Positions 8,428 to 58,540 are shown, numbered from the stretch's first letter. The stretch: DNA of 64,000 bases from an uncultured Candidatus Berkelbacteria bacterium (GCA_903877885.1 CAIRFN010000006.1:3342-67341); one strand, 5' to 3'. Translations and numbers: made by a program. The notes: a model not told the origin generated them from the sequence alone.

Positions 8428-9726
8428 ATGAACAGAAAAATACGAGTTTTACTATTATTAAAATTTCCGCTCTATGGTGGCGGAAGTGGTGCTTTCACTC
8501 GTCGGCTGGCTCAAAAATTAGTTGAGACCGGCCGTTTTGACGTTGCCATTGCCGCGCCAGACAAACGCCAAATTCCAGGGATTAAAGTTTACCAAATTAA
8601 ACCAGCCTTTAAAGCGGTTTTTGAAAGCCATCCTGAATGGAAGCGGGCAGTTAAATATAGTGAACTAACTAGTCCAGAATTTAATCGCCAATATCTTTCT
8701 TTTATGAAGGCAATTACGGCTGTAGTTGAGGATTTTAGACCAGATGTTATTCATGTTAATCATGCCCATTTTTTAACTTGGCTGGCTTCCTTTATTAAAT
8801 CTATTTTTGGTATTACCTTTATTGTTTCGGTCCATGGCACAGATATTTACAATACCACTATTGATCGCCGATATTTGGTTTTGCTTCGACAAGCTGTGGA
8901 ACGGGCCGAGCAAATTATTGCGGTTTCACCGCATACTAAAAAATGGTTTTTGAAAGTTTGCGGTAAAAAATTAGCCAAAAAAACCCGAACTATTACTCAC
9001 GCGATAAATGCTGAAACATATGCTATTGAACCAGAAAATTTAACTATTGATGAAAAATATAAGCTTAAAGGTAAAAAATTAGTTTTATTTGTTGGCCGTT
9101 TAACTCGGGAAAAAGGCGTCGAATATTTAATTAAAGCAGCTAAAGATATTCAGGCCGAGATTTTTATTATTGGTGATGGCGTGCGCAAAGATTATCTGGT
9201 TAATTATGCAAAATTGATTGAGACTAAAAATGTCCGTTTTTTGGGTTATTTTGGCAAGAAAAATGCTGATTATTTGAAAGAATTTTATCATCGAGCTGAC
9301 GTTTTAGTTTTGCCTTCGGTTGTTGATGAATCTTTGGGCCTAGTAGTTTTGGAAGCGATGGCTGCTAAAACGCCAGTGGTTGCTTCTAATAAAGGTGGTA
9401 TTCCTTTAGTTATTAAAGATGGCTATAATGGGTTTTTAATTCGAGCCCGTAGTCCTAAAGCAATTTACGAATCAGTCAACAAGATTTTGCAAAACGAAAA
9501 ATTAGCGCAAAGATTAGGTCAAAATGCTTACAAAACAGTGATCGAAAAATTTGACTGGAATGTGGTGGTGCCACAGTTTGAATCGGTTTATAATAAAGCT
9601 GCGGAGATGACTAAAAAATTGCAGTCCAACTTAAAGAAATCTATTTTCGACCGCGAAGATTTGGTTCGCGAACAAATCGAACTTAAAGAAAAAATCGATT
9701 ACGATATTAATGTATTCGATAGTTAA
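8428..9726 (+). CDS. Glycosyltransferase family 4 (GT-B, group 1)
   Basis: 432 aa; C-terminal ...LPSVVDESLGLVVLEAMAAKTPVVASNKGGIPLVIKDGYNGFL typical of GT4 E-x7-E enzymes. Confidence 0.75.
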   Translation: MNRKIRVLLLLKFPLYGGGSGAFTRRLAQKLVETGRFDVAIAAPDKRQIPGIKVYQIKPAFKAVFESHPEWKRAVKYSELTSPEFNRQYLSFMKAITAVVEDFRPDVIHVNHAHFLTWLASFIKSIFGITFIVSVHGTDIYNTTIDRRYLVLLRQAVERAEQIIAVSPHTKKWFLKVCGKKLAKKTRTITHAINAETYAIEPENLTIDEKYKLKGKKLVLFVGRLTREKGVEYLIKAAKDIQAEIFIIGDGVRKDYLVNYAKLIETKNVRFLGYFGKKNADYLKEFYHRADVLVLPSVVDESLGLVVLEAMAAKTPVVASNKGGIPLVIKDGYNGFLIRARSPKAIYESVNKILQNEKLAQRLGQNAYKTVIEKFDWNVVVPQFESVYNKAAEMTKKLQSNLKKSIFDREDLVREQIELKEKIDYDINVFDS

Positions 9727-9737
9727 AAAGGAGGAAC

Positions 9738-10733
9738 ATGGTTAAAGCTTCGATTATCATTCCAACTTATAAGCGACCTCAAGAAACTGCTGATTGTTTG
9801 AAATTTTTAAGCAATAGCTTAGGATTTGGACAGGAATTTTTATTGGAAGTAATTATTGTTGATAGCTCTCCAGATAAAAAAACTTTTTCCGAAATTAAAA
9901 AATATCAGGAAATTTTCGAACTAAAATATTTACATTTGCGAAAAAAAACTTTGCCTGGTCAAGCGCGCAATATTGGAATTAAAATAGCAAAAAATGAATT
10001 AATTATCATGCTGGACTCTGATATTGAAATTATGCCAGTCACAATTGGTCGAATGATTAATTATTTAAAAAATCATCCGACAGTTTCCAGATTAACCGGA
10101 AAAACCATTTTTTCATCTGGAGAAAATAAAGGCCAAATAGATCGTCCTACTAAGTGGGATCGGCAGGTTATGATCGACCGAACTAATTATATCGAAGGAA
10201 TTTATGGTCGCTATGAAGCTTTTTACAAAACGCCGTTTTTGTCAATTGGCGGATATGACAAAATTTTCGATGTTTGCGGCGAAGGTACGGATCTTTCGAT
10301 TCGTTTTTGGCGGGCTGGCTTTCCTTTGGCAATCGATGAAAATATCATTGCTTACCACAACACTGAAGCGCCGGAAAGTTTGCGTCGGACAGTTATTAAC
10401 AAAATGACCGCAATGTATCGCTCGCTTTTTATTGTAGCCTACAAATATGGTGTTAAGGAATTAGAATCAAGCCCAAATTTTGTTAAATCTCATCAGGAAC
10501 GAGAAGCCGCTTACGGTGAAACGATTGAATTTCATTCGATTGTTTCAGCCGCTGAATCAATCGAATGGTTTAAGAAAAATTATTCTGATTTAGTAAAAAG
10601 TAAAAAAGCCGTTCCAAAATTATTTGATTTTAAACCGTTTGATGTTTTTTCTGATCAAAAACTTTTTGCTCAATGCATAAACCAAGCTTTAGAAATAAAT
10701 GCCAAAAGCTATAAAAAAGTTTTTACTAATTAG
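9738..10733 (+). CDS. Glycosyltransferase family 2
   Basis: Begins SIIIPTYKRPQE... with a DSD (DxD) motif, typical of the GT-A fold; 331 aa. Confidence 0.65.
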   Translation: MVKASIIIPTYKRPQETADCLKFLSNSLGFGQEFLLEVIIVDSSPDKKTFSEIKKYQEIFELKYLHLRKKTLPGQARNIGIKIAKNELIIMLDSDIEIMPVTIGRMINYLKNHPTVSRLTGKTIFSSGENKGQIDRPTKWDRQVMIDRTNYIEGIYGRYEAFYKTPFLSIGGYDKIFDVCGEGTDLSIRFWRAGFPLAIDENIIAYHNTEAPESLRRTVINKMTAMYRSLFIVAYKYGVKELESSPNFVKSHQEREAAYGETIEFHSIVSAAESIEWFKKNYSDLVKSKKAVPKLFDFKPFDVFSDQKLFAQCINQALEINAKSYKKVFTN

Positions 10734-22881: not shown

Positions 22882-22920
22882 AAACCATATATCCCACCTC
22901 CAGGGTGGGCTATATGGTTA
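22882..22920. repeat. REP-like palindrome TAACCATATATCCCACC-TCCA-GGGTGGGCTATATGGTTA, a member of the window's REP family
   Basis: Near-perfect 17-bp inverted arms. Lies between the convergent comM and small minus-strand ORF, so may act as a bidirectional terminator. Confidence 0.7.
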
Positions 22921-24901: not shown

Positions 24902-24942
24902 TAACCTTATATAGCCCACCCTGGAGGTGGGCTGTGGTATAA
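24902..24942. repeat. REP-like palindrome, inverted orientation (…AGCCCACC-CTGGA-GGTGGGCT…)
   Basis: Loop CTGGA is the reverse complement of the TCCAG loop in the downstream copy. Confidence 0.65.
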
Positions 24943-24949
24943 TAAATAG

Positions 24950-25624: not shown

Positions 25625-25657
25625 AACCATATATCCCACCTCCAGGGTGGGCTATAA
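25625..25657. repeat. REP-like palindrome (TAACCATATATCCCACC-TCCAG-GGTGGGCTATA)
   Basis: Same sequence as the 22882 copy; immediately follows the RAYT stop codon. Confidence 0.7.
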
Positions 25658-25709
25658 TTTCGGTAGAAATTTCGGCGACTTTAGTCTATATGGTTAAGCA
25701 CTTATTAGT

Positions 25710-47800: not shown

Positions 47801-47986
47801 AAAATGCCGGAGAGTTTTTCAACGGAACCGATTGAGATGACACGATTAAGAGCTATTGACGACGGTCGTGGTAGGCCGGAGTCAATGATATATGATGATT
47901 TGGCGACTGGTACCGATTTAAACAAACCTCATATGTATGGCGGCTCCGCTTGGCACAGATCGCTAGAAGGTAGGACTAATGGGTGA
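44894..47986 (+). CDS. Large hypothetical protein (1030 aa) heading the tandem paralog array
   Basis: Long ORF with a good RBS (AAGGAGAATAAAAGGATG); its stop overlaps the start of the first paralog. No domain recognisable by eye. Confidence 0.5.
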   Translation: MGEFQNHSVEFDNLGGLTSEDRQAILMRGDLRKRSQELKVNALNLNPPESTPEHKAYYERILSLVNREADGEEKMDPAQAEATLDEKEKGMRVKIATMGEIAPNFGGYLYANLAKYEQLAGQDFSEDLSKSKEYMDRATHIPKLVPSNLLPDAITLGIQKRFLDTQELPSKEKIAQAAQMDPELIKSYALVLHENEREDFLKLIPEDQRRQIGIELDTSVSSVLHQSLIEKNTPEEEQRRQVRMRLFRELRSSLSETDPSDKKTVQLMGEALGTLGEDARQLILELIRDETDSREEGVDRQTDHLPRIMKVMIDNFDDWRGNDIILQTAASPELNHHMSIYLFGKLVDKGYLPKDVADWWNTRKTTASNEGREPDDEKFRLDILKGTVDELGVIPNKEILEFISKDENWQGDDGQTVPVSERFERIASSQAEFSGVKSNSELVDLLKNNENKAMIYFLLHGGDDRFNLINNYSFDKFKEMLGLISDLEINERPIQSFKETLLNSGMNEGQANDVITRLRAGHFPLPNSQQAYQEVSFEISENAALNNANGEIGQVLGKDQLGVVLTFPMYREYLEADGSEQAQEMFARMQQATTFTDRQAIIAEINGLYPDFQERIKNDLQDSWIKFGDKMVIETTLDQVLTSDQIQIHGEELLPKLDAKRIDLKRINKELLIALKSENRNVSDLNSEISRKKKARTGLEQGLARQTDVGKRGELQRKIDEIDSDIANLETRRAAVGEMKVDDRFTGLSKEEKEAEVDRLSQEIIALTEKSPSAIFTFITMQVLGEQRLRENDITLVKEMESHLQGPFQTINDVLTYERPKTESKKRTRVGLQYLDKVDRLATMVRFADSKICCFSSSNYEMRVQHNTPNKIWVASINKDPMSFVLSMEMPQVQTDQPGKKVNENIGFIFGSFAQDNEGKLGVMMNGIYYAPGIEDARQVEQIMGGVEKIFEGLPINTEVIATQYGGSVKMPESFSTEPIEMTRLRAIDDGRGRPESMIYDDLATGTDLNKPHMYGGSAWHRSLEGRTNG

Positions 47987-48878
47987 AAATTTAGAGCCTT
48001 TTGAAATTCAACGCGAGGCATTAGCTGAAAGATTAAAACTCAAAGAACAATGGGAGTCACAGATTAGTATTCTTAATGAAACAGGAATTCTACAATTGCT
48101 CCCAGAAAGTCAGGAGCTAGGGATCGTTGGTATTGATGGTGAAGAATATCCAATTCCAGATTATAAAGAAATCATAGATCGTCTTACACCAGAAAAAGCA
48201 CAAATTCTGGAGCAGAAAATTGAACAAGGGTTTAGTAAAATGCTATTAGTGCCTTTTGGTATGTCCATGGAGACCTTAGCTCAAAGGTACAGAGAAGTAG
48301 TTCTTAAAAAAAGTAATGAAGAAACTCTTTTGGATACTGATGGTTTAAGGATTGAGTTAGACAAAAATAACCCCTTCCCAAACCTAATATCCCTGAACAC
48401 TGACATCGATAAAAGACTGTCCTACTATCCAAGTAATTTTGAGGAGCAAGAGGGCTTCACTAAGTCTGAGATACTCAGTAGAGGTGCCGGGTTTAAGATC
48501 GAGTTTATCGAGGATCGACCAGACTTATCTGATAACCGGCAAGCTCAAGGTGGAAGATTCAGTCCACCATCCAGGAGTATGCCAGCCAGGTATCTAGAGA
48601 TAATCCAGAACGATGAAAACATGTCGAATGAACAAGGATGGACGATGGAAACGTGGTTAACATATGCTATTACGAATTTAAAAGAAAGAAACCAACAAAT
48701 TGATAGTAATCGTTGGGGAAAGTTTTCTTGGCTTTTGGGCGCCTATTTCCCAGCACAAGCTCCTAGTGTGCCAATAGTGATGTATGCAGGTTGGTCTAAA
48801 GGCAAAGCAGAATTATTTAGTGGTGAATTTGATGATAGGTCAACCAACGCTAGTCTACGTACTTCAGTGGAGATATAA
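47979..48878 (+). CDS. Tandem paralog 1 of the 7-member family (no variable repeat)
   Basis: Conserved N-terminus LEPFEIQREALAERLKLKEQWESQISILNETGILQLLPESQELGIVGIDGEEYPIP; C-terminus ...ASLRTSVEI. Confidence 0.6.
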   Translation: MGENLEPFEIQREALAERLKLKEQWESQISILNETGILQLLPESQELGIVGIDGEEYPIPDYKEIIDRLTPEKAQILEQKIEQGFSKMLLVPFGMSMETLAQRYREVVLKKSNEETLLDTDGLRIELDKNNPFPNLISLNTDIDKRLSYYPSNFEEQEGFTKSEILSRGAGFKIEFIEDRPDLSDNRQAQGGRFSPPSRSMPARYLEIIQNDENMSNEQGWTMETWLTYAITNLKERNQQIDSNRWGKFSWLLGAYFPAQAPSVPIVMYAGWSKGKAELFSGEFDDRSTNASLRTSVEI

Positions 48879-48880
48879 CT

Positions 48881-49798
48881 ATGAATAATGAATCATTACA
48901 ACCATTTGAAATTCAACGTGAAGCGTTAGCTGAGCGATTGAATCTAAGAGAACAGTGGGAATCACAAGTTAAAATCTTGAATGAGACTGGTATTTTGGAG
49001 ATCCTTCCAGAGGCCCAAGAGTTGGGAATCATTGGTATTGACGGTCGAGAGCATCCAGTACCAGATTTTCAGGAAATTATGTCTCGAATTTCGCCGGAGC
49101 AGATGGAAGTCTTAGAGAAAAAGAATGAGCAAGGATTCAATAAAATGGTCCTAGTTCCTTTTGCTGTACCGCTAGACATATTGATTGATCGATACAAAAA
49201 GCTTCTTATTGAAAAAGATGCGGAAGGATCACTCTCATCAACTGATGGTTCAAAACTTAATCTCGATCGCGACCAACCAATCTATGTTTGGGACAAATAT
49301 ACCGGTGCTGATGCAAGCGGTGAGTTAGTTTATTTCCCGAATACATTTGATCAACAAAATCACGGTGGTAAAACAAAAAATACCCTAATACAAGAAGGTA
49401 AATCTTGGCAATTTGAATTACTTGAAGAAAATATTAATATCCCTGCTAAAGGTCAGGGAGAGATACTTGACGGCCGCAAACAACTAGAAGCCGGACAATC
49501 ACCAAATCAATATTTAAAAGAATTACAAATCGATCCTCAATATCAAAATGAGGTCGGCTTGACACCAGAAGCATGGTTGGTTTTAGCTATAACCCAATTA
49601 AAAGAAAACCATGGCCAAATTGACGATTATCAAGGTCAAGGCAAAATAAATTTTCTTACGGGTGCCTATTTCCCCGGTTCTGACAGTGTCCCGCGCGCGC
49701 GCTGGAGCCGTGACGGTCGTCGGGCGTTCTTGGACAGGAGCGTTCCCTCTGGCTCGCTTTCGAGCATTGGGTGTCGCTCCTCGGTGGAAATTCAGTAA
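48881..49798 (+). CDS. Tandem paralog 2; DGR target gene carrying variable repeat VR1 at its 3' end
   Basis: Same conserved N-terminus. The last ~38 codons (…VPRARWSRDGRRAFLDRSVPSGSLSSIGCRSSVEIQ) are the VR copy of the template repeat. Confidence 0.7.
   Translation: MNNESLQPFEIQREALAERLNLREQWESQVKILNETGILEILPEAQELGIIGIDGREHPVPDFQEIMSRISPEQMEVLEKKNEQGFNKMVLVPFAVPLDILIDRYKKLLIEKDAEGSLSSTDGSKLNLDRDQPIYVWDKYTGADASGELVYFPNTFDQQNHGGKTKNTLIQEGKSWQFELLEENINIPAKGQGEILDGRKQLEAGQSPNQYLKELQIDPQYQNEVGLTPEAWLVLAITQLKENHGQIDDYQGQGKINFLTGAYFPGSDSVPRARWSRDGRRAFLDRSVPSGSLSSIGCRSSVEIQ
49676..49789 (+). repeat. DGR variable repeat VR1
   Basis: ~114 bp matching the template repeat at 54708..54821, except at the template's adenine positions (all 17 differences fall on them). 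Confidence 0.8.
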
Positions 49799-49893
49799 TT
49801 TGATATTTGGCTTTTAAACTTTCTTTTTTCTTTATCTTTGATTCGGTATCCCGCCTTCGGCGGGCCACTGCAAAAATTTTAAAGGAGATAGAT

Positions 49894-50781
49894 ATGGAGA
49901 GTAATATGAGTGAAAATCTTCAACCATTTGAAATACAGCGCGAAGCACTTGCTGAACGGCTAAAACTCAAAGACCAGTGGGCATCACAGGTTAAGATGCT
50001 GAATGAAGCGGGTGTTTTGGAATTGCTTCCAGAGAGTCAGGAGCTAGGAATTATCGGAATTGATGGACAAGAATATGCAATACCTAGTTATGAACAAATT
50101 TTAGGTCGTATTACTCAAGGAAAAGCTGAGATTTTAGAAAATCAAACAGAAAACGGTTATAAGCAATTAATTTTAACTCCTTTCGCAATGCCTTTGAGGC
50201 AACTGTGTAAATTAGTTGAAGGATCATTTAAGAAAGTCTTATCAGAAAACCAAGTTGTTGATGCTTATGGAAGTGATGAAAGAATCAATTCTGATAACTT
50301 TATTGAAGATAATGGAAATATTCTCGATTCCGATATTAACGGAGAAATGGTTTACTACCCAAACTCAGACGATAGCAAAGACGGTTTGACAAAAATAGAT
50401 TGCATTAAAGAAAATGGTGGTTGGGAAATTGATTTTATTGCCAAAGAACCTCAGAAATACATACAAGATATCAACAAGCAAAAAAAGGCCATGGTGCAAG
50501 GTGGATTTAGAGGATTAACTCTTGAAAGCTGGTTGACTCAGTCAATGAATTTTTTCCAGAACGAGAAAAAGTTTTCAGATTATCTCGAACCATGTCTTTT
50601 GGCGGGATCGTCTCTGCGAGAGAAGAGGACTATCCCGGCAGCATGGTTTGCTGATAATCGATCTAATTACAAAGGTAAATATTTAGTAATAAAAACTTTA
50701 GAAGAAAATCGTAATCAAAATAAAGCATTTGGCGGTTTTTCGCAAACTGACGGAAATGCGCGTTTCAGCGTGAATTTATAA
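49894..50781 (+). CDS. Tandem paralog 3
   Basis: Start chosen at ATG 49894 after RBS AAAGGAG; the ORF track starts earlier at 49807. N-terminus MESNMSENLQPFEIQREALAERLKLKDQW... Confidence 0.6.
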   Translation: MESNMSENLQPFEIQREALAERLKLKDQWASQVKMLNEAGVLELLPESQELGIIGIDGQEYAIPSYEQILGRITQGKAEILENQTENGYKQLILTPFAMPLRQLCKLVEGSFKKVLSENQVVDAYGSDERINSDNFIEDNGNILDSDINGEMVYYPNSDDSKDGLTKIDCIKENGGWEIDFIAKEPQKYIQDINKQKKAMVQGGFRGLTLESWLTQSMNFFQNEKKFSDYLEPCLLAGSSLREKRTIPAAWFADNRSNYKGKYLVIKTLEENRNQNKAFGGFSQTDGNARFSVNL

Positions 50782-50790
50782 AGGGAAAAT

Positions 50791-51675
50791 ATGAATGAAT
50801 CCTTACAACCATTTGAAGTCCAAAGAGAAGCTTTAACTGAAAGGCTAAAACTCAAAGAGCAGTGGGAATCGCAAATAAAAATACTTAACGAAGTTGGAAT
50901 TCTTGAAATTCTACCTGAAAGTCAGGAGCTGGGAATCATTGGAATTGATCAAAAAGAATATCCAATCCCCAATTATGAAGATATTCTTAATAAAATTACT
51001 CAAGAACAAGCAGACTTAGTAACCCAAAAAACTGAACAGGGGTTTAATAAGTTAATATTGGTTCCCTTCGCTAAATCCCTTCAAGAAACCATAGAACTCT
51101 ATGCTAGATTATTAGTCCAAAAAAAACACGAAAAGACCCTTGTAGGGGCTGAAAACGAAGAATTTGACCTCGATATCAATAATCCTATCGTTGATATGAC
51201 TAAAAATGATTCTTTGTTTTATATTCCATCAAATGGAAAAAGATTCACGAAATCGGAATTTCTTGTAAGCGAAATGCGTTACCCGGGTTGGCAAGTCGCA
51301 TTAATCGAAGATTCTCCCGTCCCGTTCGAGAAAGATTCAGATAAAAAGGAATATGGCTACAAACAACCAAATGGCGATTTAGTAAGAGATTGGAGTCATC
51401 AGCTAAAGCTAATGAAAGAGAACGAATCTTATATCGGCGAAGAGGAAATATCTCCAGAGGCATGGCTTGCATATGCCATCACTAACTTAAAGGAAAAAAA
51501 CCAGCAGATTGATTTTCAAAATGAATCAATTGACAGGTGTTGGCTTGGTGCTTTTAGTAAAAAAGGAGAAACTGTTTACTCTTTATTTAAAAACAATCAA
51601 ATTAACTTTCATATCTATTCTCCCTTTGAGAGGGAGAAATCAAAAGCTATTTTTAGGTCGGTCGTACAGATTTAA
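50791..51675 (+). CDS. Tandem paralog 4
   Basis: MNESLQPFEVQREALTERLKLKEQWESQIKILNEVGILEILPESQELGIIGID... Confidence 0.6.
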   Translation: MNESLQPFEVQREALTERLKLKEQWESQIKILNEVGILEILPESQELGIIGIDQKEYPIPNYEDILNKITQEQADLVTQKTEQGFNKLILVPFAKSLQETIELYARLLVQKKHEKTLVGAENEEFDLDINNPIVDMTKNDSLFYIPSNGKRFTKSEFLVSEMRYPGWQVALIEDSPVPFEKDSDKKEYGYKQPNGDLVRDWSHQLKLMKENESYIGEEEISPEAWLAYAITNLKEKNQQIDFQNESIDRCWLGAFSKKGETVYSLFKNNQINFHIYSPFEREKSKAIFRSVVQI

Positions 51676-51704
51676 ACTATTTAAATTTAGATTGAAAAGG
51701 TAAT

Positions 51705-52592
51705 ATGAATGAATCATTACAACCATTTGAAATCCAAAGAGAATCCTTAGCTGAAAGACTAAAACTAAAAGACCAATGGGAATCTCAAATTCGTGTACTA
51801 AATGAGGCTGGTATTTTAGAAATTCTTCCTGAAAGCCAAGAATTGGGAGTTATTGGCGTTGATGGTCAGCAATATCCGATACCAGAATACTCTGATGTGC
51901 TTAACCAACTAACACCAGAAAATTTGGAATTATTAGAGGCAAAACAGGAAGAAGATTATAACAAACTAATTATTACGCCGTTTGCGATGCCTTTAAAACA
52001 ACTAATTGATAGATATTCTTCTCTTCTAAAGAGAAAAGACAAAACAGGAGAACTTAAAGATTCACAAGGAAATAGTATAAATATATCTGACGGTGATGAA
52101 CCTATTAAGTTACCTGTTAAACTTATCGAAGATGGTTACGATGACACACTCTTGTATTTTGGAAAATTGGGCGAAGAACAAGAGACTGGTAAAACAAAAA
52201 AGAAATCGATAGAGCAAGGAAAAATTTGGCACTTTTGTCTGGTTCAGGATACAAACTCTCTTGAAAACAAGAGGATTGAGACGAAAATCGATTCTTATCT
52301 TCAAGAAGGCGGTTTATCTGGATATACGCTTGAAGATTGGTTGATGCATGCAATTACGAATTTGCAAGAAAGTGGAAAACAAATAGATTGCACTGATTCC
52401 AAAGAAATAATCCCAAATTGGTTAATGGGATCGTACCTTCCAAAAGATGATTGTTATTTCAGAGCAGCCTATGATATTCACGATCCCTCTTCTACTGGCG
52501 CTGTCATCGGCGGCGCAAAAGGAGAAATTTTGAAAAGTCGAAAGAATTTTATTAATTTTAGAAACTTGATTGAGCTAGGAAGCAATTTATGA
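51705..52592 (+). CDS. Tandem paralog 5
   Basis: MNESLQPFEIQRESLAERLKLKDQWESQIRVLNEAGILEILPESQELGVIGVDG... Confidence 0.6.
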   Translation: MNESLQPFEIQRESLAERLKLKDQWESQIRVLNEAGILEILPESQELGVIGVDGQQYPIPEYSDVLNQLTPENLELLEAKQEEDYNKLIITPFAMPLKQLIDRYSSLLKRKDKTGELKDSQGNSINISDGDEPIKLPVKLIEDGYDDTLLYFGKLGEEQETGKTKKKSIEQGKIWHFCLVQDTNSLENKRIETKIDSYLQEGGLSGYTLEDWLMHAITNLQESGKQIDCTDSKEIIPNWLMGSYLPKDDCYFRAAYDIHDPSSTGAVIGGAKGEILKSRKNFINFRNLIELGSNL

Positions 52593-53506
52593 ATGAATCC
52601 TTGCAACCTTTTGAAACCCAGTGTGAGGCACTTGCCGAACGATTAAAACTCAAGGAACAGTGGGAATCACAGGTTCAGTTTCTCAATGAAGTAGGTATTT
52701 TAGAATTATTACCTGAATCGCAAGAATTGGGCATTGTTGGAATTGATGGTCGGGAATACCCAGTTCCTGAATATTCGGAGATAATGCAAAAAATCACCCC
52801 GGAAAAGGCGGAGATTTTGGAAAGAAAATCCGAACAAGGATTTAATAAAATGCTCTTAGTGCCTTTCGCGATACCTTTAGAAAGGTTGATAGATCGTTAT
52901 GAACGAGAATTAGTTAAACAATCTGAAAATGGCGGTGTAATCAATTCTAATGGTGAAAAGATAGAAATTAATCCGAAAAATCCAATAACTTTTATGGATA
53001 ATGAATTTAAAAGCTCAGATCTAACTAAAAAGTTAGCCTACTACCCAACTCATCCCGATTATGGTGGCGAAACGAAATCAGAAATAATTTCAAAAGATAG
53101 CCCCTGGAAATTTCATTTTGTTGAAGATTTAGACCATATTCCTCAGCAAGAGGAAGGTCAAACTATTGGCGGCAGAAAACAGCTTGAAACAGGTATGAGT
53201 CCAAGACAATATTTACTTCAGGTACAACGAAATGCTATGTATTCGAACGAACAAGGTATGACACCAGAAGACTGGCTTTGTAATGCAATTTTAAATTTAA
53301 GAAATAACGGAAAGCAAATTGATAGCGCTGGAAGAAACGGTCAAACTTGTTATTTAATCGGTTCTGGTTATCAATATGGCCCGTCAGGTGAAGAAATAGC
53401 TAGTGCTGGATGGGGTCGCATAAAAAGTGATTCTGCTTTTTTGGGTGCCGACTTCAATAGTGAATCACAACAAAATTTTGGCGTTAGAACTGTAGTAGAA
53501 ATCTAA
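52589..53506 (+). CDS. Tandem paralog 6
   Basis: MNESLQPFETQCEALAERLKLKEQWESQVQFLNEVGILELLPESQELGIVGIDG...; C-terminus ...NFGVRTVVEI. Confidence 0.6.
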   Translation: MNESLQPFETQCEALAERLKLKEQWESQVQFLNEVGILELLPESQELGIVGIDGREYPVPEYSEIMQKITPEKAEILERKSEQGFNKMLLVPFAIPLERLIDRYERELVKQSENGGVINSNGEKIEINPKNPITFMDNEFKSSDLTKKLAYYPTHPDYGGETKSEIISKDSPWKFHFVEDLDHIPQQEEGQTIGGRKQLETGMSPRQYLLQVQRNAMYSNEQGMTPEDWLCNAILNLRNNGKQIDSAGRNGQTCYLIGSGYQYGPSGEEIASAGWGRIKSDSAFLGADFNSESQQNFGVRTVVEI

Positions 53507-53515
53507 AGGAATATT

Positions 53516-54421
53516 ATGACAGAAAACTTACAACCATTCGAAATTCAACGCGAAGCATTTGCCGAGCGGTTAAATCTGAAAGAACAATGGGAATCACAGG
53601 TCAAAATACTTAATGAAGTAGGTATTCTTGAGATACTGCCCGAAAGTCAGGAATTAGGGATCATTGGTATTGACGGTCAAGAGTATCCAGTACCAGATTT
53701 CCAGGAAATTATGTCTCGAATTACCCCAGAACAGATGGAAGTTTTAGAAAAGAAAAATGAGCAAGGTTTTAACAAAATGCTTATTACTCCCTTTGGCATG
53801 CCTCTGGACATCCTAATTAGTAGGTATAAAGAACTCTTACTTAAAAAAGATTCTGAAAGCACGTTACTGGCTACCGATGGCTCGAAACTTGATCTTGATA
53901 GAAATGAACCAACATGGGTTTGGGAAGGATACAACGGTGCTGACGCAAACGGAGGGCTAGTTTATTTTCCAGAAAGCTTCACCCAAAATCATGAGGGGCA
54001 AACTAAACAAGAGATATTGGCTAACTCAGGTGCTTTCAAAATCGAGTTTATTGAAGATACGCCAGACATGCCTCGAAACGAACAAACTCAAGGCGGCCGC
54101 ATTAAACCTACTCCAGGTAAAAAAGCGTCTCAGTATCTTGAAATCATGCAAAACGATGAAAATATGACCAACGAGCATGGTCTCACCCCTGAAACATGGC
54201 TGACTTATGCTATTACTAACTTAAAAGAAAGAAACCAACAAATAGATGACTGGCAAGGTCAAGGTAAGGGTTCCTGGCTTACCGGTGCTTATTTCCCGGC
54301 TTCTGGCTTTGTCCCGTGCGCGGACTGGGACCGTGACGCTCGTCTGGCGTACTTGGACGGGAGCGGTCCCTCTGTCTCGTTTTCGGGCTTTGGGTGTCGC
54401 TCCTCGGTGGAAATAAAATAG
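53516..54421 (+). CDS. Tandem paralog 7; DGR target gene carrying variable repeat VR2 at its 3' end
   Basis: Conserved N-terminus; C-terminal …VPCADWDRDARLAYLDGSGPSVSFSGFGCRSSVEIK is the VR copy. Confidence 0.7.
   Translation: MTENLQPFEIQREAFAERLNLKEQWESQVKILNEVGILEILPESQELGIIGIDGQEYPVPDFQEIMSRITPEQMEVLEKKNEQGFNKMLITPFGMPLDILISRYKELLLKKDSESTLLATDGSKLDLDRNEPTWVWEGYNGADANGGLVYFPESFTQNHEGQTKQEILANSGAFKIEFIEDTPDMPRNEQTQGGRIKPTPGKKASQYLEIMQNDENMTNEHGLTPETWLTYAITNLKERNQQIDDWQGQGKGSWLTGAYFPASGFVPCADWDRDARLAYLDGSGPSVSFSGFGCRSSVEIK
54311..54412 (+). repeat. DGR variable repeat VR2
   Basis: Matches the template repeat except at its adenine positions; shares the identical 3' end GGGTGTCGCTCCTCGGTGGAA. 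Confidence 0.8.
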
Positions 54422-54707
54422 TTTTGAAATTTGTTCTTTAATTTTTCTTTATATTTTTAACTTTAGGTGCTGGCGTTAGCCAGCTAGACGCAATTGGGCT
54501 AATGAACCCGCCTTGGGCGGGGCGCCCAAAATTTGTTTTAGAAAATAAGTGAAACTTCGCTAACCGCGAACACTTTCGAAAAACAGCAAACAAATGAATT
54601 TCCACGTGAGCCCCGTTCATTCCGATTTGAGAGGAATGAAATATGAAAGCTAATTCTAAATTGGATGGCTGCGGCTGTCTGATGAATAATGCGGCGGGGT
54701 CACAAAT

Positions 54708-54821
54708 GGTTCTGACAATGTCCCGAACGCGAACTGGAACCGTGACGATCGTCAGGCGAACTTGAACAGGAACGATCCCTCTAACTCGAATTCGAACATT
54801 GGGTGTCGCTCCTCGGTGGAA
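54708..54821 (+). repeat. DGR template repeat (TR), non-coding, rich in AAC codons
   Basis: GGTTCTGACAATGTCCCGAACGCGAACTGGAACCGTGACGATCGTCAGGCGAACTTGAACAGGAACGATCCCTCTAACTCGAATTCGAACATTGGGTGTCGCTCCTCGGTGGAA. Every mismatch to VR1 and VR2 lies at an A of this copy. Confidence 0.85.
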
Positions 54822-54842
54822 GTTCTTTTTGTTTTAAGAAAG

Positions 54843-55884
54843 GGCTTAATATCAAAAACGTGCACCTAGTTTTGCAAAATATAGTTAATTATTTTGTCTT
54901 TTAGTTCTTTGGTAAAGCCTCTGTGAATGTTTACTTTTTGTTTTAGCCAACTAAAACTGCCCTCTAAAGAATTGGTGGTTTTGGGGATATTAAGTTCAGG
55001 ATATTTTAGATACGTAAAAAGATATGGCAAATTAGTTTTAAGGCTTCTAAAAGCCGCTCGCGTTCTCTTGTGAGTATAATGCCATCGGTTTGTAATTTGG
55101 TCGGTTGTTCTCTCCTTTAGAAACTCTTGCCACTTTTGGTGCCATAGGAGTAGTTTTTGGGTAAATTCTTTCTCGGTGGCATAGGTCAAAGTATCGCTAA
55201 TAGCTTTGAGTTCTAAGCTTGCTTCTAACTTTGGGTTTAAGGTTAAATAACGCTGGATAATTTGTTTTTGATGAAAATGACACATCTGGACTGGGACATC
55301 TAAAAATAGATTTCTCACTCCGGGTCTGCCATCCAAAACAATAGCTTTAAACTTAAAGCCTTGATTTTCTAGGGTAATTCTTCCCATTAGGTACTCGTTG
55401 ATTGTCTCGAATATAACAGGTTTGAAATAGAGATTACGTTTGAGCTCGACCGCTCTAAAAACCAGAAAACCGTATGCTCTGCCAAAGAAAGTAGCATCGA
55501 CAACAAAAACTAGACCATCAGGTGTGGTCTTCTTTTTAATGGTTTTCGCTTTCTCGATTTTAGTTCTAACCCAGTTGATGCTTTTGCCGTACTCGCAAGA
55601 GAGATTCTTGAGAGTCTGGCGCTTTCCGACATATTTTCCCAGGATAATTTGTTCTAATTTTTGAGGTCTGGATTTCGTTTGAAAATAACTTTGGCAATCT
55701 TTGCAAAAATATCTTTGCTTTTTTGCCGAGCGAGTACTTTTACCCTTTTTTACGCAACGATTTGAACTGCATTTAGGACAGTTTTTTTAACCATGTTTAC
55801 ATCCTCCTGTAAATTAACTTTAAATTACTGGTTCAAATATATCACATTCAGGTTAAGTTAGGTGCACGTTTTTGATATTAAGCC
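54843..55884 (-). mobile_element. IS1-family-like insertion sequence (1042 bp) with 26-bp terminal inverted repeats and 8-bp target-site duplication TAAGAAAG
   Basis: IRL GGCTTAATATCAAAAACGTGCACCTA (54843..54868) is the exact reverse complement of IRR (55859..55884). The direct repeat TAAGAAAG sits at 54835..54842 and 55885..55892. Confidence 0.8.
54866..55794 (-). CDS. IS1-like transposase (InsA-type zinc finger fused to DDE domain); reading frame requires a -1 shift in an A7 run at codon 4
   Basis: After RBS AGGAGG and ATG at 55794, the 0-frame stops after 14 codons. The -1 frame gives ...CPKCSSNRCVKKGKSTRSAKKQRYFCKDCQSYF... (the IS1 InsA C-x2-C…QRY-x-C-x2-C finger). It continues to ...TNSLEGSFSWLKQK... 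and a stop at 54866. Confidence 0.6.
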
Positions 55885-56202
55885 TAAGAAAGAGATCGAA
55901 TCCATCCGCCAAGCATGCGGCCGATTTCTCTTAAATCAGATTGCGCTTGGAAAATTTTGGTTTCATTCCCTAAATGCAGTTCCAAGCAGGCTCTTAGTTT
56001 CAGAGTAATTATTTCTAATCGGCCGGAAGCTTTAAGGAGATAAGAAGATTTTAGGGTTTTCGGCGCATTTTTAGCCATAATTAGCTCTTCAAGCAGATCC
56101 AAAATCGAATTTTCAAGACTCATGCCCAAAGAATAGCGCCATCTTTTTTCGAGCTTGGCGTTAAATTCAAGAATGAATTTATATAAATCGTAGGATTGAT
56201 TA

Positions 56203-56222
<20 letters not shown>
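55884..56222 (-). CDS. avd: DGR accessory variability determinant (Avd-like four-helix-bundle protein)
   Basis: 112 aa; ...RWRYSLGMSL... and C-terminal ...EIGRMLGGWIRSLS resemble Bordetella bAvd (…EVGRILGSWIARV…). Adjacent to the RT gene. Confidence 0.7.
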
Positions 56223-57214
<992 letters not shown>

Positions 57215-57246
57215 TTAAAACTTGCTCGCTTATAGTTTTTATAATA

Positions 57247-57972
57247 TCACCGCCTATTGTGTGCGGTTTCGATGAAGCGTTTGATTAGCAACTTAATACC
57301 AAGTTTTATAACCTGATAACCGTTCAATAAGCACCATAATAACGCCGGAAATATGACTCCCGTTAAAAACGTCTTGATTGTCTGGAAAAAGTTGTATTTC
57401 GAGTTTGCGACTAAACTCCGGTATAATCTCTCGTACTGGAATTTGTAGCCTTCGACCATTTTTTTGTTTAAATCAAGATAGGTCATAACCTGCATGGCCG
57501 CGTTTTCGTCTACGATTCGACGCATCATTTCCCGACTTTCCCTTTGGGACAAAATATTCAGACTTCCTTCCCAAAGTATTTCTCGATCAATAACGGCCAC
57601 CTTTTCATGAATCAATCCGGGTAGTTGGAAAACACAGACTCCCAACTCTTCGTAATCTTTTATAGCACAGGAAATCTCTGTTCGCATTAGATAGTCGTGC
57701 TCCTCAAGAGGACGAGTGAAGATAAAAACACAAATATTTCTTCTTCGAAGCTCAGTTAATGATTTTCTGAAAAACTCCGATCGGAACTTGCTTACAAATG
57801 GACTGTAAATGATAATTTCTTTTTTGGCCTTGAGCATATCTTGGACGAAAACCCGATAAAATGTCCTTTCATTATAAAGATCGAGTTTTTGTAATTCATG
57901 TAATTTTTTGGCGTCGATTTCGTTCTGGATGTTCATCAAATGTTGTCTATGCGCCGGCGAATTAATTGGCAT
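57247..57972 (-). CDS. Phospholipase D-family (single HKD motif) nuclease-like protein with hydrophobic C-terminus
   Basis: ...LIHEKVAVIDREILWEGSLNI... = HxK(x)4D(x)6GSxN motif; 241 aa. Confidence 0.6.
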   Translation of the reverse strand: MPINSPAHRQHLMNIQNEIDAKKLHELQKLDLYNERTFYRVFVQDMLKAKKEIIIYSPFVSKFRSEFFRKSLTELRRRNICVFIFTRPLEEHDYLMRTEISCAIKDYEELGVCVFQLPGLIHEKVAVIDREILWEGSLNILSQRESREMMRRIVDENAAMQVMTYLDLNKKMVEGYKFQYERLYRSLVANSKYNFFQTIKTFLTGVIFPALLWCLLNGYQVIKLGIKLLIKRFIETAHNRR

Positions 57973-58397: not shown

Positions 58398-58540
58398 TTA
58401 ACCATATGTTACCACCTCCAAGGTGGCAACGTGGTAAATTTTAACCATATAGCCCACTTCCGAAGTGGGCTGTGAAGTGGGCTGTGACAGGTTAATAACC
58501 ATAGATTCCACCTCTAAGGTGGACAGTGATAAGGTTATGA
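58398..58540. repeat. Cluster of three REP-like palindromes, each preceded by TAACCATA
   Basis: TTACCACC-TCCAA-GGTGG..., AGCCCACT-TCCGA-AGTGGGCT (plus a partial duplication AAGTGGGCTGTG) and TTCCACC-TCTAA-GGTGGA. Compensatory changes in the stems (CCCACC/GGTGGG vs CCCACT/AGTGGG) maintain the hairpins. Confidence 0.7.

Follow-up and report, generated by a model that had tools for sequence, protein, structure and literature searches.

Target hairpins of diversity-generating retroelements (DGRs) have G/C stems of 7-10 bp and 4-nt loops that read GRNA on the sense strand, and they lie 4-34 bp from the variable repeat (VR) (Guo et al. 2011, PMC3240598). For the hairpin of BPP-1, both the size and the sequence of the loop are critical, and the structure of the stem matters while its sequence does not (PMC3240598). 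The same stem, loop and distance values form the search rule of myDGR (PMC6602519), and a survey found high-confidence inverted repeats after the initiation of mutagenic homing (IMH) site in only 34% of DGRs (PMC5758913). Here we describe two G/C-rich hairpins, each downstream of a VR, at a DGR locus of an uncultured Candidatus Berkelbacteria bacterium. The stretch analysed, hereafter the window, comprises 64,000 nt (GCA_903877885.1, CAIRFN010000006.1:3342-67341), and an original prediction made from its sequence had taken both hairpins for target-recognition elements.

Bacteria of the Candidate Phyla Radiation (CPR) hold a large share of known DGRs. The template RNA of BPP-1 reportedly has a structured spacer region 3' of the template repeat (TR), a finding attributed to Handa et al. 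Three further kinds of described element invite comparison with the hairpins of the window: structured parts of DGR template RNAs (2017, PMC5737381), the GRA-loop hairpins of Nanoarchaeota DGRs (Paul et al. 2015, PMC4372165), and rho-independent terminators, including the terminator hairpins targeted by group IIC introns (PMC3240598). Our analysis makes it probable that the hairpin after VR2 is a helix (P2) of a conserved leader of the TR, that the hairpin after VR1 is a truncated paralogous copy of it, and that neither is a classical target-recognition hairpin.

The locus is a genuine DGR of the Patescibacteria (CPR), with two VRs, a TR, the accessory gene bAvd and a reverse transcriptase (RT) gene (Table 1). 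VR1 has 19 mismatches to the TR in the BLAST self-match, 18 of them at TR adenines and the remaining one at the IMH/IMH* G/A position (49790); for VR2, 21 of 21 mismatches are at TR adenines. Because the differences inside the repeats fall on TR adenines, both VRs are genuine DGR targets, as had been proposed; the hairpins, from which the proposal had drawn support, do not themselves provide it. TR/VR homology stops at 49793 for VR1 and at 54412 for VR2. Pfam detected an RVT_1 domain on both halves of the RT, for which 2826 homologs were found at E <= 1e-20, the named ones belonging to Patescibacteria/CPR bacteria. The locus is ordered as seven tandem target paralogs, leader, TR, avd on the minus strand, and RT. 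The paralogs (47979-54421) have ~300 codons each and a C-terminal module common to all seven; a match to the TR is present in paralogs 2 and 7 only.

Both hairpins proved real and near-identical, each consisting of a 3-nt loop on a perfect 6-bp stem made up of G/C pairs only. Each folds as DNA, at -7.4 kcal/mol for the 36 nt around the VR1 hairpin and -10.1 kcal/mol for the 41 nt around the VR2 hairpin, flanking pairs included. The second had been drawn one base too long, since base 54522 falls outside its stem. The distances first given, 60 and 95 bp after the repeats, agree with 60 nt after the GGTGGAA core of VR1 and 94 nt after VR2; counted from the end of the repeat itself, the VR1 hairpin starts at 56 nt. 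The pattern CCCGCCN4GCGGG, with at most one mismatch, occurs in the 64 kb at these two hairpins alone (4 strand matches observed against 0.25 expected; 0 of 100 shuffles reached 4), and the window has a G+C content of 37%.

A census of perfect hairpins in the window (stems of 6 bp or more, including 5 or more G/C pairs) returned 17, none of them between 54530 and 56776. The stretch downstream of the TR has no G/C-rich hairpin and folds like shuffled sequence (54824-54940, z 0.08), in agreement with the claim that no such hairpin follows the TR; this absence is to be read with the caveat that an insertion sequence begins 17 nt after the TR and, because it adjoins the TR, the present sequence 3' of the TR is not ancestral. 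The five paralogs without a VR have no hairpin behind them either, because their junctions to the next gene, which range from a 4-nt overlap to a 29-nt gap, leave no room for one. The claim that the hairpin is present only at the two targets holds for gene ends, where the 64 kb contain no other copy, and fails for the RT gene, which contains a third hairpin with the same stem.

To place the hairpins in a wider frame, we fetched 80 genomic loci of relatives via an RT alignment and identified TR/VR pairs by self-BLAST, keeping those in which at least 80% of the mismatches fell on adenines of one copy. A pair was detected in 63 of 82 loci (62 relatives and the window), usually in the order VR, ~300 nt, TR, ~325 nt, RT. 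The VR-to-TR spacers of the relatives are built to one plan. They begin with an A/T-rich stretch, often followed by a G/C hairpin and a T run and often by a -10-like box; then comes an element of the form xxGGYGAAUAGnnA-[G/C hairpin]-GCURCCxx, followed by more conserved helices, which include a stretch with complementarity to the TR 3' end. We call the outer helix of this element P1 and its G/C hairpin P2. The element was located in 36 distinct loci, 156-266 nt upstream of the TR. For L047, which is among these loci, no VR was detected in the interval from the element to its TR.

Covariation was assessed in an alignment of the P1/P2 sequences of 30 relatives from which the window was left out. 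In this alignment, 93% of the cells were paired, and the covariation score was 0.64, compared to 0.24 in shuffles (0 of 500 reached 0.64) and at most 0.14 when the partners were slid. Individual P2 positions show up to six pair types, and RNAalifold independently predicted both helices. The family also contains G.U pairs on the sense strand, which speak for RNA structure rather than for a cruciform in the DNA.

The window contains a recognisable version of this arrangement. Its predicted P1 pairs TTGGGC (54494-54499) with GCCCAA (54524-54529) and encloses an internal loop, TAATGAA, then P2, which is the reported VR2 hairpin, and a 2-nt bulge on the 3' side; it starts 214 nt upstream of the TR, within the range of the family. 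With a whole-leader nhmmer profile built from 36 relatives without the window, the sole significant hit in the window was 54506-54681 (E 2.4e-7), and the alignment starts exactly on ACCCGCCTTGGGCGGGGC, the VR2 hairpin. In L002, a relative from a different sample with an RT 72% identical, the leader starts with cATGGC-ttatgaa-CCCGCC-tgg-GGCGGG-gc-GCCAT, where two P1 pairs are compensatory, having changed on both sides. In L083, P1 reads TTGGGC...GCCTAA and has one G.U pair. On this comparative evidence, the VR2 hairpin is to be assigned as the predicted helix P2 of a conserved TR leader.

The RNA fold of leader plus TR has a z of -3.17, and its minimum-free-energy structure pairs 54599-54610 with the 3' end of the TR (54812-54825; TTTCCAC with GTGGAAA). 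A leader segment complementary to the TR 3' end, the IMH* region, is also present in relatives L005-L079, ~100-120 nt upstream of the TR, and it varies by locus along with that end, as in ACCCTTAG with CTAAGGGT and CCCATCAC with GTGATGGG. Exact complementarity of at least 8 nt was found in 34% of own leader/TR-end pairs versus 11% of cross pairs. The modelled pairing implies a long-range helix that would close the whole TR.

The ~210-nt leader is most likely the 5' part of a TR-containing RNA, and we infer that it is transcribed together with the TR. As in the structured parts of known template RNAs (PMC5737381), there is conserved RNA structure beside the TR that pairs with its 3' end and presumably helps the RT-Avd complex use the template; unlike in those, the structure lies upstream of the TR rather than downstream, has another architecture and matches no Rfam 15 family. 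Searches with Rfam 15 of the window at 49600-57300 and of L011 at 9000-10100 gave no relevant family at E <= 10, only chance-level matches, and neither that database nor the literature searched yielded a description of this leader.

The VR1 hairpin lies 4.8 kb from the TR, outside the position range of P1/P2, and retains P2 only; the P1/P2 covariance model did not report it at E <= 10. Its origin is suggested by an alignment (A5) of the flanks of VR1, VR2 and L083, the only other two-target relative of the sub-lineage found. The VR1 flank matches those of VR2 and L083 for ~60 nt and then has a gap of ~40-50 nt, which removes a first post-VR hairpin (hairpin 1), the 5' strand of P1 and the internal loop, before the alignment resumes on CCCGCC-TTN-GGCGGG. 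The VR1 hairpin thereby aligns with P2 of VR2, L083 and L002. Hairpin 1, which the original prediction had missed, occupies in the window the site of the post-VR hairpin known from relatives. In L083, both VRs carry a hairpin identical to hairpin 1, GCTGGC-GTTA-GCCAGC, and P1/P2 is found at the TR-adjacent VR only and not at the remote one. Counted as the bases between the GGTGGAA core and the first stem base, the first G/C hairpin follows at 60 nt for VR1, 56 nt for VR2 and 62 nt for both L083 VRs. Each of the four VRs is therefore followed, 56-62 nt past the core, by a G/C hairpin with a 6-bp stem, and at VR1 this is the P2 copy. The stems after VR1 and VR2 are identical at 12 of 12 bases, within flanks that are ~60-65% identical as read from alignments A1 and A5. 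Judged from these alignments, the VR1 hairpin is a truncated P2 copy that came with the duplication of a 3' flank, and its perfect stem amid diverged sequence suggests selection or gene conversion.

Taken together, in this RT clade the stretch of ~300 nt that leads from the TR-proximal VR to the TR would be more than a plain spacer, and would usually hold a terminator-like hairpin of the target gene followed by the ~210-nt structured leader. The leader would open with P1 around a 7-8 nt internal loop and the short G/C hairpin P2, and would carry further along the segment complementary to the TR 3' end. The hairpin at 54507-54521 would then act on the TR side and at the RNA level, perhaps in the folding of the template RNA or in protein binding by it, and not as a DNA cruciform that marks the target. 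The target gene would have been duplicated with its 3' flank, bringing a copy of P2 behind VR1, and the duplicated flank would later have lost ~40-50 nt comprising hairpin 1, the 5' strand of P1 and the internal loop. This loss would have left a bare P2 ~60 nt after VR1, at the usual offset of GCTGGC-GTTA-GCCAGC, where it may have been retained since a G/C hairpin there is useful, either for retrohoming or for formation or stability of an RNA 3' end.

Several observations weigh against this reading. The covariance model of the relatives' P1/P2 matches the window over its full length (54492-54531) with a score of only 8.7 bits (E 4.6, rank 6), and the variant in the window does not have the conserved GAAUAG loop and GCUAC motifs. 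Because the covariance-model hit is not significant, the P1/P2 assignment rests on the whole-leader profile, the position and the two close relatives. P1 pairing was required when the sequences of the relatives were extracted, which leaves only the covariation of P2 unbiased. The start of transcription and the function at the RNA level both rest on inference. That the VR1 copy was kept could be due to gene conversion between the copies and not to selection. Furthermore, distant target homologs often have no G/C hairpin after their VR-like ends: one in three has one for L088/L089 and none for L092 and L094, on contigs (L088-L094) that offered no TR by which these ends could be confirmed as active VRs. 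Because such ends often have no hairpin, a hairpin at ~+60 is not a general requirement. Finally, the CCCGCC stem inside the RT gene is not accounted for by assigning this stem to P2 of the leader.

It is possible, if not what we would expect, that the VR1 hairpin is left over from the duplicated flank and has no function, its stem being perfect through recent duplication, gene conversion or chance. This would be compatible with the VR2 part of the reading that we prefer. The VR1 copy has neither P1 nor the internal loop and would thus be unable to act as a leader element, many VR-like ends of homologs do without hairpins, and the DGR looks switched off (see below). On the other hand, 12 of 12 identical stem bases would be expected ~0.3% of the time given a flank identity of ~60-65%, the genome has only 37% G+C, and through the deletion the offset of the VR1 hairpin differs by no more than 4 nt from that of hairpin 1 at VR2.

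The interpretation of the original prediction, that both hairpins work as a DGR target-recognition hairpin or cruciform in the DNA and raise cDNA integration as in BPP-1, appears unlikely to us. As in BPP-1, a G/C-rich inverted repeat lies 3' of each VR and is absent after the TR; the stem is confined to DGR parts of the window, and every VR of the sub-lineage has a G/C hairpin ~56-62 nt downstream. The VR1 stem is perfectly kept within a diverged flank, and VR1 was rewritten from the TR with its present flank in place. Moreover, nanoarchaeal DGRs have hairpins with GRA trinucleotide loops (PMC4372165), and the loop of the VR1 hairpin reads GAA on the antisense strand. Like those, the hairpins of the window are short, have 3-nt loops and are linked to DGR targets of ultra-small uncultivated prokaryotes; unlike those, which lie within the target gene, they are intergenic and their loops read TTC/TTG on the sense strand (GAA/CAA antisense). 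Against the published hairpin, both depart in stem length (6 bp and not 7-10), loop (3-nt TTC/TTG and not GRNA) and distance (56 and 94 nt and not 4-34). In addition, the VR2 copy is enclosed by a second helix, P1, as part of a leader whose position relative to the TR is conserved, no CCCGCC-type hairpin follows the remote VR of L083, the sense-strand G.U pairs of the family point to RNA rather than to a cruciform, hairpins are missing from several VR-like ends of homologs, and high-confidence inverted repeats are in any case restricted to about a third of surveyed DGRs (34%, PMC5758913). Hence, the proposed role in target recognition is not borne out for the VR2 hairpin, which is better explained as P2 of the leader, and a role on the target side is neither shown nor excluded for the VR1 hairpin.

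A more speculative proposal, to which we give little credence, is that P1/P2 and the leader constitute an undescribed RNA domain of CPR DGRs that, placed upstream of the template and not downstream as in BPP-1, positions RT-Avd on it, a single module marking both donor and recipient. In that case, one and the same short G/C hairpin would serve for recognition twice, in the template RNA and, in its bare form after VR1, at the target.

Post-VR hairpins in the relatives bear on whether the two hairpins could be ordinary intrinsic terminators, or RNA 3'-end or stability hairpins of the target genes, that are not specially connected with the DGR. In relatives, a G/C hairpin, whose loop is often GNNA, is found 33-68 nt downstream of the VR. 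Among perfect hairpins starting at most 70 nt from the VR, 15 of 19 have a T-rich tail, and the first post-VR hairpin of the relatives is thus terminator-like; among those starting more than 70 nt away, the T-rich tail is found in 0 of 12, and CT[AG]CC, the 3' strand of P1, comes next in 10 of the 12. A consensus scan flagged an overlapping fold, TTGGGCGGGGCGCCCAA plus AATTTGTTTT, at 54513-54529, and VR2 closes the paralog array, where a terminator would be expected. Nevertheless, we regard this explanation as very improbable. Neither CCCGCC hairpin is followed by a T run, which in rho-independent terminators would give the U tract: the tails are CCACTGCAA for VR1 and GCGCCCAAA for VR2, in line with the earlier view that these are DGR parts rather than generic terminators. 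The VR1 copy lies inside an array of genes that all point the same way, with the next ribosome-binding site 30 nt further on, the stem sequence is found at no other gene end in 64 kb, and the VR2 copy belongs to a covarying two-helix element whose hairpin class is T-tailed in 0 of 12 relatives.

We also considered a general enrichment of hairpins after VRs. Such hairpins were found at 27 of 75 VR flanks versus 23 of 167 other gene ends with flanks free of open reading frames (p 1.4e-4). The excess is largely owed to the leader P2 class, which supplied 12 of the 31 hairpins, and the rest look terminator-like; enrichment was rejected as an explanation. A genome-wide palindromic repeat was likewise dismissed, the family CCCACC-TCCAG-GGTGGG with AACCATATAT flanks, of which the window has four copies, being unrelated in sequence.

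The locus defines a conserved, covarying leader upstream of the TR. DGR annotation tools seek one type of hairpin just after the VR, and here a post-VR hairpin can belong to the leader of the template RNA. If the leader is needed for cDNA synthesis, the mechanism of DGRs would extend beyond the Bordetella phage model, and its need would also matter for reconstituting or engineering the compact DGRs of CPR bacteria.

Table 1. Coordinates of the features of the DGR locus and of other hairpins in the window.
Feature	Position	Strand	Remarks
VR1	49676..49793	+	Variable repeat, 3' end of paralog 2 (gene 48881-49798); BLAST self-match to TR
VR1 hairpin, CCCGCC-TTC-GGCGGG	49850..49864	+	Reads CCCGCCTTCGGCGGG; in the 95-nt gap between paralogs 2 and 3
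VR2	54301..54412	+	Variable repeat, 3' end of paralog 7 (gene 53516-54421)
Hairpin 1, GCTGGC-GTTA-GCCAGC	54469..54484	+	57 nt after VR2, between VR2 and the VR2 hairpin
Predicted P1/P2 element, 5' end of the TR leader	54494..54529	+	DNA and RNA folds
Putative conserved structured leader between VR2 and TR	54494..54707	+	Includes TTTCCACGTGAG (54599-54610), complementary to the TR 3' end
VR2 hairpin, CCCGCC-TTG-GGCGGG	54507..54521	+	Reads CCCGCCTTGGGCGGG; between VR2 and TR
Template repeat (TR)	54708..54825	+	TR/VR self-match
Insertion sequence, 1042 bp	54843..55884	-	Inverted ends, 8-bp target duplication TAAGAAAG; transposase frame broken
bAvd accessory gene	55884..56222	- (opposite strand)	Pfam PF22296 bAvd, E 2.5e-10
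DGR reverse transcriptase (RT)	56203..57214	+	Out of frame within the (GA)18 tract (56722-56757)
Third hairpin, same stem, CCCGCC-GGCA-GGCGGG	56777..56792	+	In the RT reading frame (codons PAGRRG), 19 nt after the GA tract
CCCACC palindromes, four copies	22883-22919, 24903-24943, 25625-25661, 58441-58481	both orientations	Hairpin census

The third hairpin, inside the RT gene, is kept in L001 and in L091, the latter with an RT 86% identical to that of the window, and is absent in L002, where RT identity is 72%. A transposed copy of P2 is not supported for it: it has no P1, its loop differs, and it is missing in L002. The codons in which it lies are G/C-rich, which is unusual for a genome with 37% G+C.

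The RT of the window is out of frame inside its (GA)18 tract, and 16 or 19 GA units would be needed for an in-frame gene. It is also out of frame in two related assemblies: there are 17 units in a near-identical genome of another sample and 11 in a relative with an 86%-identical RT, as opposed to 18 in the window. Simple-sequence repeats recur within the clade at one site of the RT, a linker just before the codons for G(I/M)PIGNLTSQ. Those seen are (GA)6 to (GA)18, (CT)16, (GCAA)9-13 and G9-G10, located at 893-926 in L001 and at 841-862 in L091, with repeats at the equivalent site in L004, L019, L027, L034, L039, L042, L045, L046, L072, L079, L080 and L081. Out-of-frame RTs made up 6 of 12 with a repeat of at least 12 nt, compared to 3 of 60 others, one of these three having G9. 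The repeats have the look of a recurrent on/off switch of the slipped-strand type that acts on the hypermutation enzyme; slippage in assembly is another possible source. Nothing on such a switch was found in the literature searched.

Four other assemblies have VR1 and VR2 regions identical to those of the window. Because the RT is out of frame, an insertion sequence lies by the TR and the VRs are identical in these assemblies, the element looks presently switched off, though both VRs were rewritten from the TR in the past.

The TR-to-RT gap of ~325 nt is constant across the RT clade, which suggests that the avd arrangement of the window is the rule there. Since avd lies on the opposite strand in this gap, template-RNA sequence 3' of the TR would be antisense to avd. 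An exact look-up of the Avd protein gave no match, and a Pfam scan of three paralogs and of the 1030-codon gene upstream found no domain.

The insertion sequence sits exactly at the avd stop codon and has inverted ends of ~27 bp; L002 and L083 do not have it at this site. The contigs of near-identical genomes break or change partner at it, L001 starting within it, and L084 has different genes after it, which may be an assembly join through the insertion sequence. Elsewhere in the window, the intergenic palindromes of Table 1 form a family, AACCATATAT-CCCACC-TCCAG-GGTGGG-CTATATGGTT and variants, that occurs in both orientations and with no T run.

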